This document shows positions 1 to 3,000 of a stretch of 35,626 bases of DNA, piece after piece; positions within the stretch are counted from its first letter, which is position 1, and the number at the start of each line of letters is the position of its first letter. Source of the DNA: a virus (taxonomy: Duplodnaviria; Heunggongvirae; Uroviricota; Caudoviricetes); IMG/VR virus record IMGVR_UViG_2874962485_000008; one strand, written 5' to 3'. Made by a program: the position numbers.

Positions 1-3000
1 ATGAAACTCATCAGTAACGATCTGCGCGATGGCGATAAGTTGCCGCATCGTCATGTCTTTAACGGCATGGGTTACGATGGCGATAATATTTCACCGCATC
101 TGGCGTGGGATGATGTTCCTGCGGGAACGAAAAGTTTTGTTGTCACCTGCTACGACCCGGATGCGCCAACCGGCTCCGGCTGGTGGCACTGGGTAGTTGT
201 TAATTTACCCGCTGATACCCGCGTATTACCGCAAGGGTTTGGCTCTGGTCTGGTAGCAATGCCAGACGGCGTTTTGCAGACGCGTACCGATTTTGGTAAA
301 ACCGGATACGATGGCGCAGCGCCGCCGAAAGGCGAAACCCATCGCTACATTTTTACCGTTCACGCGCTGGATGTAGAGCGTATTGATGTCGATGAAGGAG
401 CCAGCGGCGCGATGGTCGGGTTTAACGTTCATTTCCACTCTCTGGCAAGCGCATCGATTACCGCGATGTTTAGTTAATCACTCTGCCAGATGGCGCAATG
501 CCATCTGGTATCACTTAAAGGTATTAAAAACAACTTTTTGTCTTTTTACCTTCCCGTTTCGCTCAAGTTAGTATAAAAAAGCTGACCGAGAAACAGTAAA
601 AATCATTAATATCAATGCATTATAATACATTTAGCTTAAAAAATAGACTGCATAATACTGCAAAACACAACATATCCAGTCACTATGAATCAACCACTTA
701 GATGGTATTAGTGACCTGATACAGAGCATTAGCGCAAGGTGATTTTTTGTCCTCTTGCGCTAATTTTTTGTCAACGCACTGGGTTAGCTGAATTTACAAC
801 CATGCTCAGTATCTCGATAAGCGCAGAGAAATGATGCTGTGGTGGGCAGACTACTGGCTTGATGAAAAGGTAGGGCGACCAACCGCGTTTTTTCAGTTCA
901 GTCAGCACATTGAGCCAGAACTTCACCCCTTCATTTTCGGCCAGCCACATCCCCAACAGTTCTTCCTGTTCTTAACTATTTACAGGCGCGTTTTTTTAAA
1001 GAATCCTCACTCCATTTGCACGAATATATTAATATATAAACAATGAGGATCAATAATAAATGAAACCTGCCCACAATCCTTCTTTTTTCCGCTCCTTTTG
1101 TGGTTTAGGATGTATATCCCGTTTATCCGTAGAAGAGCAAAATATCACGGATTATCACCGCATCTGGGATAACTGGGCCAAGGAAGGTGCTGCAACAGAA
1201 GACCGAACACAGGCAGTTCGATTACTGAAAATATGTCTGGCTTTTCAAGAGCCAGCCCTCAATTTAAGTTTACTCAGATTACGCTCTCTCCCATACCTGC
1301 CCCCGCACATACAAGAACTTAACATCTCTAGCAATGAGCTACGCTCTCTGCCAGAACTCCCTCCGTCCTTAACTGTACTTAAAGCCAGCGATAACAGACT
1401 GAGCAGGCTCCCGGCTCTTCCGCCTCACCTGGTCGCTCTTGATGTTTCACTTAACAGAGTTTTAACATGTTTGCCTTCTCTTCCATCTTCCTTGCAGTCA
1501 CTCTCAGCCCTTCTCAATAGCCTGGAGACGCTACCTGATCTTCCCCCGGCTCTACAAAAACTTTCTGTTGGCAACAACCAGCTTACTGCCTTACCAGAAT
1601 TACCATGTGAACTACAGGAACTAAGTGCTTTTGATAACAGATTACAAGAGCTACCGCCCCTTCCTCAAAATCTGAGGCTTTTAAACGTTGGGGAAAACCA
1701 ACTACACAGACTGCCCGAACTTCCACAACGTCTGCAATCACTATATATCCCTAACAATCAGCTGAACACATTGCCAGACAGTATCATGAATCTGCACATT
1801 TATGCAGATGTTAATATTTATAACAATCCATTGTCGACTCGCACTCTGCAAGCCCTGCAAAGATTAACCTCTTCGCCGGACTACCACGGCCCACGGATTT
1901 ACTTCTCCATGAGTGACGGACAACAGAATACACTCCATCGCCCCCTGGCTGATGCCGTGACAGCATGGTTCCCGGAAAACAAACAATCTGATGTATCACA
2001 GATATGGCATGCTTTTGAACATGAAGAGCACGCCAACACCTTTTCCGCGTTCCTTGACCGCCTTTCCGATACCGTCTCTGCACGCAATACCTCCGGATTC
2101 CGTGAACAGGTCGCTGCATGGCTGGAAAAACTCAGTGCCTCTGCGGAGCTTCGACAGCAGTCTTTCGCTGTTGCTGCTGATGCCACTGAAAGCTGTGAGG
2201 ACCGTGTCGCGCTCACATGGAACAATCTCCGGAAAACCCTCCTGGTCCATCAGGCATCTGAAGGCCTTTTCGATAATGATACCGGCGCTCTGCTCTCCCT
2301 GGGCAGGGAAATGTTCCGCCTCGAAATTCTGGAGGACATTGCCCGGGATAAAGTCAGAACTCTCCATTTTGTGGATGAGATAGAAGTCTACCTGGCCTTC
2401 CAGACCATGCTCGCAGAGAAACTTCAGCTCTCCACTGCCGTGAAGGAAATGCGTTTCTATGGCGTGTCGGGAGTGACAGCAAATGACCTCCGCACTGCCG
2501 AAGCCATGGTCAGAAGCCGTGAAGAGAATGAATTTACGGACTGGTTCTCCCTCTGGGGACCATGGCATGCTGTACTGAAGCGTACGGAAGCTGACCGCTG
2601 GGCGCTGGCAGAAGAGCAGAAATATGAGATGCTGGAGAATGAGTACCCTCAGAGGGTGGCTGACCGGCTGAAAGCATCAGGTCTGAGCGGTGATGCGGAT
2701 GCGGAGAGGGAAGCCGGTGCACAGGTGATGCGTGAGACTGAACAGCAGATTTACCGTCAGCTGACTGACGAGGTACTGGCCCTGCGATTGCCTGAAAACG
2801 GCTCACAACTGCACCATTCATAATCACATCGCATAAACCACAGACCGGACTGACTCCGGAAAAACAGAGGCCCGCCCCCGGGCCTCCCCGGATTCATCCG
2901 TTTCTCTGTTCAGCCTGACCGCACACCCCGGCGGCCGGATGACAGACTCCGCCTCGGTAAGCAAAGCGGTCTTCTGTGATTCCGCCAGTTGCGGCTTATT

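Follow-up and report, generated by a model that had tools for sequence, protein, structure and literature searches.

How does an ipaH effector gene come to lie beside ybhB, the bio-side neighbour of the classical lambda attachment site, and what kind of junction separates the viral from the host DNA at this place? The question is raised by the virus record IMGVR_UViG_2874962485_000008 (Caudoviricetes), a stretch of 35,626 nucleotides that was analysed as a whole and is referred to here as the window. A reading of the letters alone, without database searches (the sequence-only reading), had proposed that positions 478-770 hold the prophage junction attR, with an exact lambda core, host B' DNA on one side, and a lambda-like P arm and a sib/tI-like hairpin on the other. 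Comparison with lambda, phage 434 and complete Escherichia coli genomes establishes that 478-770 is an attR (P-O-B') of the canonical lambda type, on the bio side, and it was very likely left by a lambda- or 434-type temperate phage through Int-mediated site-specific recombination between ybhC and ybhB. It is best seen as a junction that is intact in sequence and borders a prophage that carries ipaH and is largely grounded.

The core and the host side of the junction

The first 582 bases of the window comprise a host gene, the host DNA that follows it and the core at which the viral DNA begins:

1-477, plus strand: ybhB, a 158-aa open reading frame named ybhB, kinase inhibitor, in matching E. 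coli genomes
478-567, no strand: host ybhB-attB intergenic DNA on the B' arm side, identical to K-12
564-572, plus strand: B' core-type Int site CAAGTTAGT, identical to K-12 attB
568-582, minus strand: 15-bp common core GCTTTTTTATACTAA, exact and unique in the window

The junction is seen in a three-way alignment of the reverse complement of the window, the ybhC-ybhB intergenic DNA of K-12 MG1655 and lambda 27499-27799. Lambda is followed as far as the end of the core; from there the window switches to K-12 and runs without a mismatch (CTTGAGCGAAACGGGAAGG...) to the stop codon of ybhB, the bacterial gene that borders the classical attachment site towards bio. Over 478-567 there are zero mismatches to the ybhB-side (B') flank of attB, which bears out the proposed host origin of this arm. 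The core, which had been called as an exact copy and is one, corresponds to the lambda misc_recomb feature 27724-27738 and contains the 7-bp overlap region TTTATAC at 571-577. A chance match to the core, considered as a candidate explanation, was ruled out: GCTTTTTTATACTAA occurs once in the 35.6-kb window even when up to two mismatches are allowed, and in 0 of 100 dinucleotide-preserving shuffles, none being expected by chance. The consensus of core-type Int sites at the lambda att sites is CAACTTNNT. By lambda convention the junction is an attR because the order on the lambda-sense strand is P-O-B' and because ybhB-bioA-bioB adjoin it.

A megablast search with window positions 1-1060 found matches in 5,424 of 5,426 complete E. 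coli genomes. Where the site is empty, the match stops at base 582, the final base of the core, which fixes the boundary of the prophage as had been claimed; in other genomes it continues to 771-773 or to 871-875, and it reaches the end of the query at 99.9% in FDAARGOS_943, the closest relative. The right boundary of the prophage is placed within the 15-bp core at 568-582.

On the host side, a perfect 11-bp hairpin at 484-510 (plus strand; -19.2 kcal/mol, z = -5.9) directly follows the ybhB stop codon. It is without a T-run, K-12 has the same hairpin, and it lies outside the phage DNA.

The P arm

Beyond the core, positions 583-718 form a P arm of the lambda/434 type in which P1, H1, P2, X1, X2/F, H2 and C are all present at lambda spacing. 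The lambda sites were transferred to the window by global alignment, in which the reverse complement of window 564-773 is 89% identical to lambda 27534-27742. The GenBank footprints 'int 1', 'int 2' and 'int 3' served to verify where P1, P2 and the core lie in lambda; the positions of H1, H2, X1, X1.5, X2 and F are those of the lambda att literature. From the far end of the arm to the core the sites are:

707-718, minus strand: P1 arm-type Int site CAGGTCACTAAT, 0 of 12 mismatches to lambda, under footprint 'int 1'
689-701, plus strand: H1 IHF site, 1 of 13 mismatches to lambda, at a consensus N position; exact consensus AATCAACCACTTA at 688-700
676-687, plus strand: P2 arm-type Int site CCAGTCACTATG, 1 of 12 mismatches to lambda, at a flanking base; under footprint 'int 2'
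662-674, minus strand: X1 Xis site, 0 of 13 mismatches to lambda
655-661, minus strand: X1.5 site, 1 of 7 mismatches to lambda
640-654, minus strand: X2 Xis site, 2 of 15 mismatches to lambda
628-643, minus strand: F or A-tract (Fis) site, overlapping X2, 3 of 16 mismatches to lambda
609-621, plus strand: H2 IHF site, 2 of 13 mismatches to lambda, consensus intact; exact match TATCAATGCATTA at 610-622
576-584, minus strand: C core-type Int site CAGCTTTTT, 0 of 9 mismatches to lambda

Motif scans agree with this transfer. The motif GTCACTAW was found at 679-686 on the plus strand (P2, where GTCACTAT is intact) and in inverted orientation at 708-715 on the minus strand (P1), and the IHF consensus WATCAANNNNTTR has only two exact matches in the whole window, at 610-622 (H2) and 688-700 (H1). 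Further, P1 lies 132-143 bp from the centre of the core, the same distance as in lambda, because small indels between H2 and C cancel out. The proposal of a lambda-like P arm carrying arm-type Int sites thus holds, with a perfect P1 and a P2 that differs at one base, both at lambda spacing.

Compared with lambda attR at the gal-bio site, the core, the 7-bp overlap, the B' arm, the C site, P1 and X1 are identical, and the order and spacing P1-H1-P2-X1-X1.5-X2/F-H2-C-O-B' are the same; the difference lies in about 11% of the P-arm bases, mostly from X2 to C, and includes a G at 586. Phage 434 (OL657226) shares with the window the X2 substitutions, the hairpin and some 100 bp beyond it (773-871), with an overall identity of about 88.5%. 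In an alignment of eight att regions, lambda, 434, JEP4, PhiR70_1, Gally, Salmonella SI8 and a relic in an Stx phage among them, the conserved blocks are P1, which is invariant in all eight, P2, X1 and the TTGAT cores of H1 and H2, and the interval from X2 to C is variable. The two X2 substitutions are also those of the viable phages 434 and JEP4, which have the same core. Overall, the P-arm sites are, as judged from their sequences, homologous to those of lambda and not merely motif-like, and the P arm is a 434-like allele, not lambda's own.

In the same alignment, phage Gally (record L024, 1575-1830) carries the same tI hairpin and the same arm from P1 to X2 next to a different core sequence, an arrangement suggesting that cores of differing specificity are exchanged as modules while the P arm is conserved.

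The tI/sib hairpin

The sequence-only reading had also noticed a hairpin with a T-run at the distance where lambda carries sib/tI, and such a structure is found 147-195 bases from the centre of the core:

722-770, plus strand: tI/sib homologue, called from its fold and from its homology to lambda and 434

The main stem pairs 728-739 with 753-764 (12 bp) below a small apical stem-loop, a lower extension of 5 bp pairs 722-726 with 766-770, and a run of six Ts occupies 764-769, the first of which closes the main stem. The predicted fold of 722-770 on the plus strand has an energy of -22.3 kcal/mol (z = -5.8), and no shuffled sequence folded as well. The hairpin runs colinear with lambda 27540-27587, which the established literature gives as tI/sib; 48 bases align with 3 mismatches (about 94% identity) and one extra loop base, by reason of which it stands one base further out than in lambda. 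Both stems are identical to those of lambda and of 434, and within the fold the window departs from lambda at two points, the added U of the loop and a bulged base that is C in place of U. The orientation is that of lambda, since the T-run is on the strand of the leftward lambda transcripts that pass from int across att. Position, stems, U-run and the extendable lower stem are likewise those of lambda tI/sib; what differs is the setting, as the copy in the window is uncoupled from int, as in any lysogen, and stands downstream of ybhB.

The homologous hairpin of phage 434 is annotated 'terminator', and the retroregulation of int by sib is summarised in PMC5300877. In viable phages, variation of the hairpin is confined to unpaired loop or bulge positions, and the degenerate Stx-phage relic of LC567818 breaks three of the predicted pairs, a pattern that is consistent with constraint without being proof of it. 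By its sequence, then, 722-770 is a homologue of lambda tI/sib, with predicted roles as a terminator and as a substrate of RNase III.

Contrary points and the evidence of related genomes

Several observations weigh against taking 478-770 as the attR of a lambda-type prophage. The first is that a search for a second core, a P' arm and an Int homologue found no int, xis, attL or P' arm within the window, which ends in prophage replication genes and an insertion sequence (IS). The second is the T-to-G change at 586 (CTCGGTCAGC), two bases outside the C site and absent from the other seven aligned sequences. For the hairpin, a search of positions 1-3000 (E <= 1) returned no matching Rfam family, and compensatory changes were seen in 0 of 21 pairs across eight homologues, a count that is uninformative because the hairpin is too conserved. 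Finally, an IS3-family element at 31986-35505 is inverted with respect to the same insertion in three related genomes (L014-L016), which suggests an IS-mediated rearrangement, with an inversion breakpoint here, by which the prophage's left end may have been displaced.

The first of these points bears on the claim that a lambda-type integration module had been used. Lacking int, xis and attL, the window alone cannot prove that claim, which is backed by the closest relative, where the partner attL and an int gene, sought in vain in the window, were both found. FDAARGOS_943 has a P arm and tI that agree with those of the window at 100%. The far end of its prophage carries xis and a 356-aa Int with 99.2% identity to that of lambda, and beside ybhC stands an exact attL of the form B-O-P'. 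Two further chromosomes (L018 and L019) share prophage segments more than 99.8% identical to the window, and both keep an exact attL.

Some side observations belong here. The region with the attL core and P' arm beside ybhC and the int gene is at 6330-7299 in L018 and at 2094-2952 in L019, and the P'1 site of both has a C-to-T change (CAGGTCATTAT) that is common to FDAARGOS_943. Two weak blastn matches (E about 1e-4 to 1e-5) between the lambda b region and window 32038-32199 were judged irrelevant; in an exact-protein look-up, the DnaC-like gene product had no match and the DnaB-like one did. For the final 121 bp of the window, no related locus gives a match.

State of the prophage

The most serious alternative is that 478-770 is not a relic at all but still works as attR, in a prophage that can be induced, can excise and forms particles. 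All the cis sites of attR are intact by sequence, and FDAARGOS_943 keeps a full-length int, xis and an exact attL. The condition of the window itself, judged by comparison with the prophage of FDAARGOS_943, speaks against it:

24865-26128: IS600, replacing the 5' end of Nu1, cos and neighbouring genes
3931: 4-nt deletion, a frameshift in a tail-fibre gene
21481: +1 insertion, a frameshift in the portal gene
22749: -1 deletion, a frameshift in the large terminase gene close to its 3' end

Moreover, the related genomes show damage to the recombination system itself. Int in L018 and L019 has been cut off by an IS and is without residues 1-63 or 1-100, the arm-binding domain, and two relatives with an identical IpaH (L009 and L011, at about 2505-2520) have lost one A from the attR core (TTAGTATAAAAAGC), which shortens the spacing of the core-type sites, so that the site is probably dead. 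A fully working prophage is thus unlikely. The prophage is decayed and largely grounded, and, given the loss of cos and of the 5' end of Nu1 and the frameshifts, it is very probably unable to make particles; excision alone could occur if int and xis survive in the source genome. That source is probably a Shigella or an enteroinvasive E. coli (EIEC), to judge from the IpaH gene and the IS load.

A further sign of decay, in the early region, is the IS3-family element at 31986-35505, which is about 1,250 bp long, IS911-like by its size, and split by a group II intron. The intron gives an Rfam RF00029 match at 32473-32559 and has a reverse transcriptase/maturase open reading frame at 32563-34086. 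Elsewhere in the prophage, four tRNA genes (Gly-TCC, Thr-TGT, Arg-TCT and Met-CAT) lie at 28267-28577 on the minus strand, between the Q antiterminator and the lysis genes.

A chromosomal junction or a relic within a phage

An attR of this kind might also be an internal relic in a phage or transducing element that carries bio-side host DNA, of the lambda-bio type, in place of a chromosomal junction. Such elements exist: lambda-bio phage DN1 (MF374379) has the same P-O-B'-ybhB-bioA arrangement, with 92.6% identity over the aligned stretch, in which its record marks an 'attR site' beside ybhB. An Stx2-phage record, moreover, holds a degenerate P-O-B' relic. The junction of DN1, however, is packaged in a phage genome, and that of the window lies in a chromosome. 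Among eight sampled chromosomes that encode an identical IpaH, six, of 4.4-5.2 Mb, contain 478-1059 exactly and the other two near-identically, and the B' side is 100% identical to K-12 and not degenerate. Where upstream genes were called, in six chromosomes, ybhB is upstream of ipaH in all and bioA and bioB also in five. We consider an internal relic very improbable for the window.

The Stx2 case is of interest in its own right. The Stx2a-phage record LC567818 (L020, about 1500-1790) holds, inside the phage, a P-O-B' relic with a tI-like hairpin of broken pairing, an altered core and DNA resembling the E. coli B' arm, followed by espO and nleG; it has the look of an old pick-up of the lambda-bio type that became fossilised in a phage genome.

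A reading of 722-770 as a chance palindrome or a generic intrinsic terminator, with no relation to sib/tI, would fit the want of an Rfam match and of covariation noted above, and a simple promoter/terminator scan did not report it either; the scan missed it because its rule allows loops of 3-8 bases and the fold has an internal bulge. The colinearity with the lambda tI region and the identity of both stems, with a distance and an orientation that match lambda, make such an origin highly improbable, and the generic terminator was set aside as a candidate on these grounds. As for the notion that nothing was inserted here and that core and flanks are uninterrupted host DNA, nothing was found in its favour and its chance is negligible: K-12 and thousands of other genomes break away from the window at 582, within the core, which ruled out a contiguous host locus, and 35 kb of lambdoid genes lie downstream of the core.

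Effector cargo inside the junction

With the junction read as a chromosomal attR of the lambda/434 type, the DNA just inside it can be followed from the phage arm into the cargo. The homology to lambda ends at about 773, and beyond it come:

773-871, no strand: remnant of a 434-type b-region end, inside the prophage; 434, mEp332, PhiR70_1 and ev099 align across 564-871
882-968, minus strand: fragment of an IS1414 (IS256-family) transposase, from the annotation of E. coli matches; in FDAARGOS_943, PGAP marks a partial transposase here
1060-2823, plus strand: ipaH, an IpaH-family E3 ubiquitin ligase of the type III secretion system, with LRR_TTSS and NEL domains; PGAP calls IpaHa in FDAARGOS_943

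The first gene inside attR is ipaH, and from 3003 onward follow the tail-fibre, Lom and J genes. An effector gene between the tail-fibre genes and the attachment site occupies the standard cargo position of lambdoid prophages (PMC3530523). The window conforms to the pattern of those loci, with ipaH and mobile-element debris (the IS1414 fragment) between the tail-fibre genes and attR, and thus has an effector gene and a transposase remnant at the same position. What differs is the cargo, a Shigella-type IpaH E3 ligase as against the Nle and Esp effectors carried by prophages of enterohaemorrhagic E. coli. The literature search returned no match for ipaH in a prophage at ybhB.

At the equivalent place, phage 434 has a fragment of IS1414 (record L005, 498-632) and, where the window has ipaH, fragments of effectors of the NleC and NleH type; the parallel suggests a shared, recombination-prone cargo slot. 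About 60 bp upstream of ipaH, at 985-1001, there is a motif resembling an MxiE box, GGCGCGTTTTTTTAAAG, with 3 mismatches to the MxiE-box consensus; 12 of 100 shuffled sequences match as well.

Proposed working of the site

By analogy with lambda, strand exchange would have taken place inside the 15-bp core at 568-582, leaving host B' DNA to its left and the phage P arm to its right. In lambda excision, the P arm is bent by three Xis proteins together with IHF bound at H2, Int bridges B' to P2, Fis acts as a non-essential enhancer, and the excisive complex engages only three arm-type sites, P2 in the P arm and P'1 and P'2 in the P' arm (PMC4880445); P1 is therefore without a role in that complex. 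The attR of the window, as inferred from its sequence, would build an excisive complex of the same kind and pair with attL.

The hairpin would behave differently in the phage and in the lysogen. In a free or circular phage, tI/sib would stand downstream of int and terminate transcripts from pI, and in transcripts from pL that read through, the extended stem would be cut by RNase III and the int mRNA destroyed, which is retroregulation. In the prophage, tI/sib is separated from int and parked at attR. Since tI points the same way as ybhB, it would there stop read-through from ybhB into the prophage and ipaH. For the window we infer protein binding, excision competence, termination by the hairpin and the insulation of ipaH from the homology described above.

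It is tempting to go further and suppose that the sequence-intact attR and tI are still active, as an insulator of ipaH and as a live target for superinfecting phages, though we hold this to be doubtful. If true, tI would end bioA-ybhB read-through and leave the adjacent ipaH under its own control. A superinfecting phage of the lambda or 434 type, with an Int about 99% identical to the resident one, could in that case integrate at attR or excise the ipaH island in trans, whereby ipaH would be mobilised.

Prevalence and significance

A P arm with tI of the lambda/434 family turns up in 1,845 of the 5,426 complete E. coli genomes; in 1,574 of them, or 29% of all, the match extends over 80% or more of the query. 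The allele of the window is rare, as only 4 of the 5,426 carry its P arm and tI at an identity of at least 95%. The kind of site is already known and its sequence is already in public genomes, and this attR adds nothing new on site-specific recombination or on retroregulation. Its significance lies in the right boundary that it sets for the prophage and in the gene that it borders. The junction means that ipaH is phage cargo, brought by a lambda/434-type integration module to the classical attachment site, which bears on how Shigella and EIEC acquired their chromosomal copies of ipaH and is of help in annotation.

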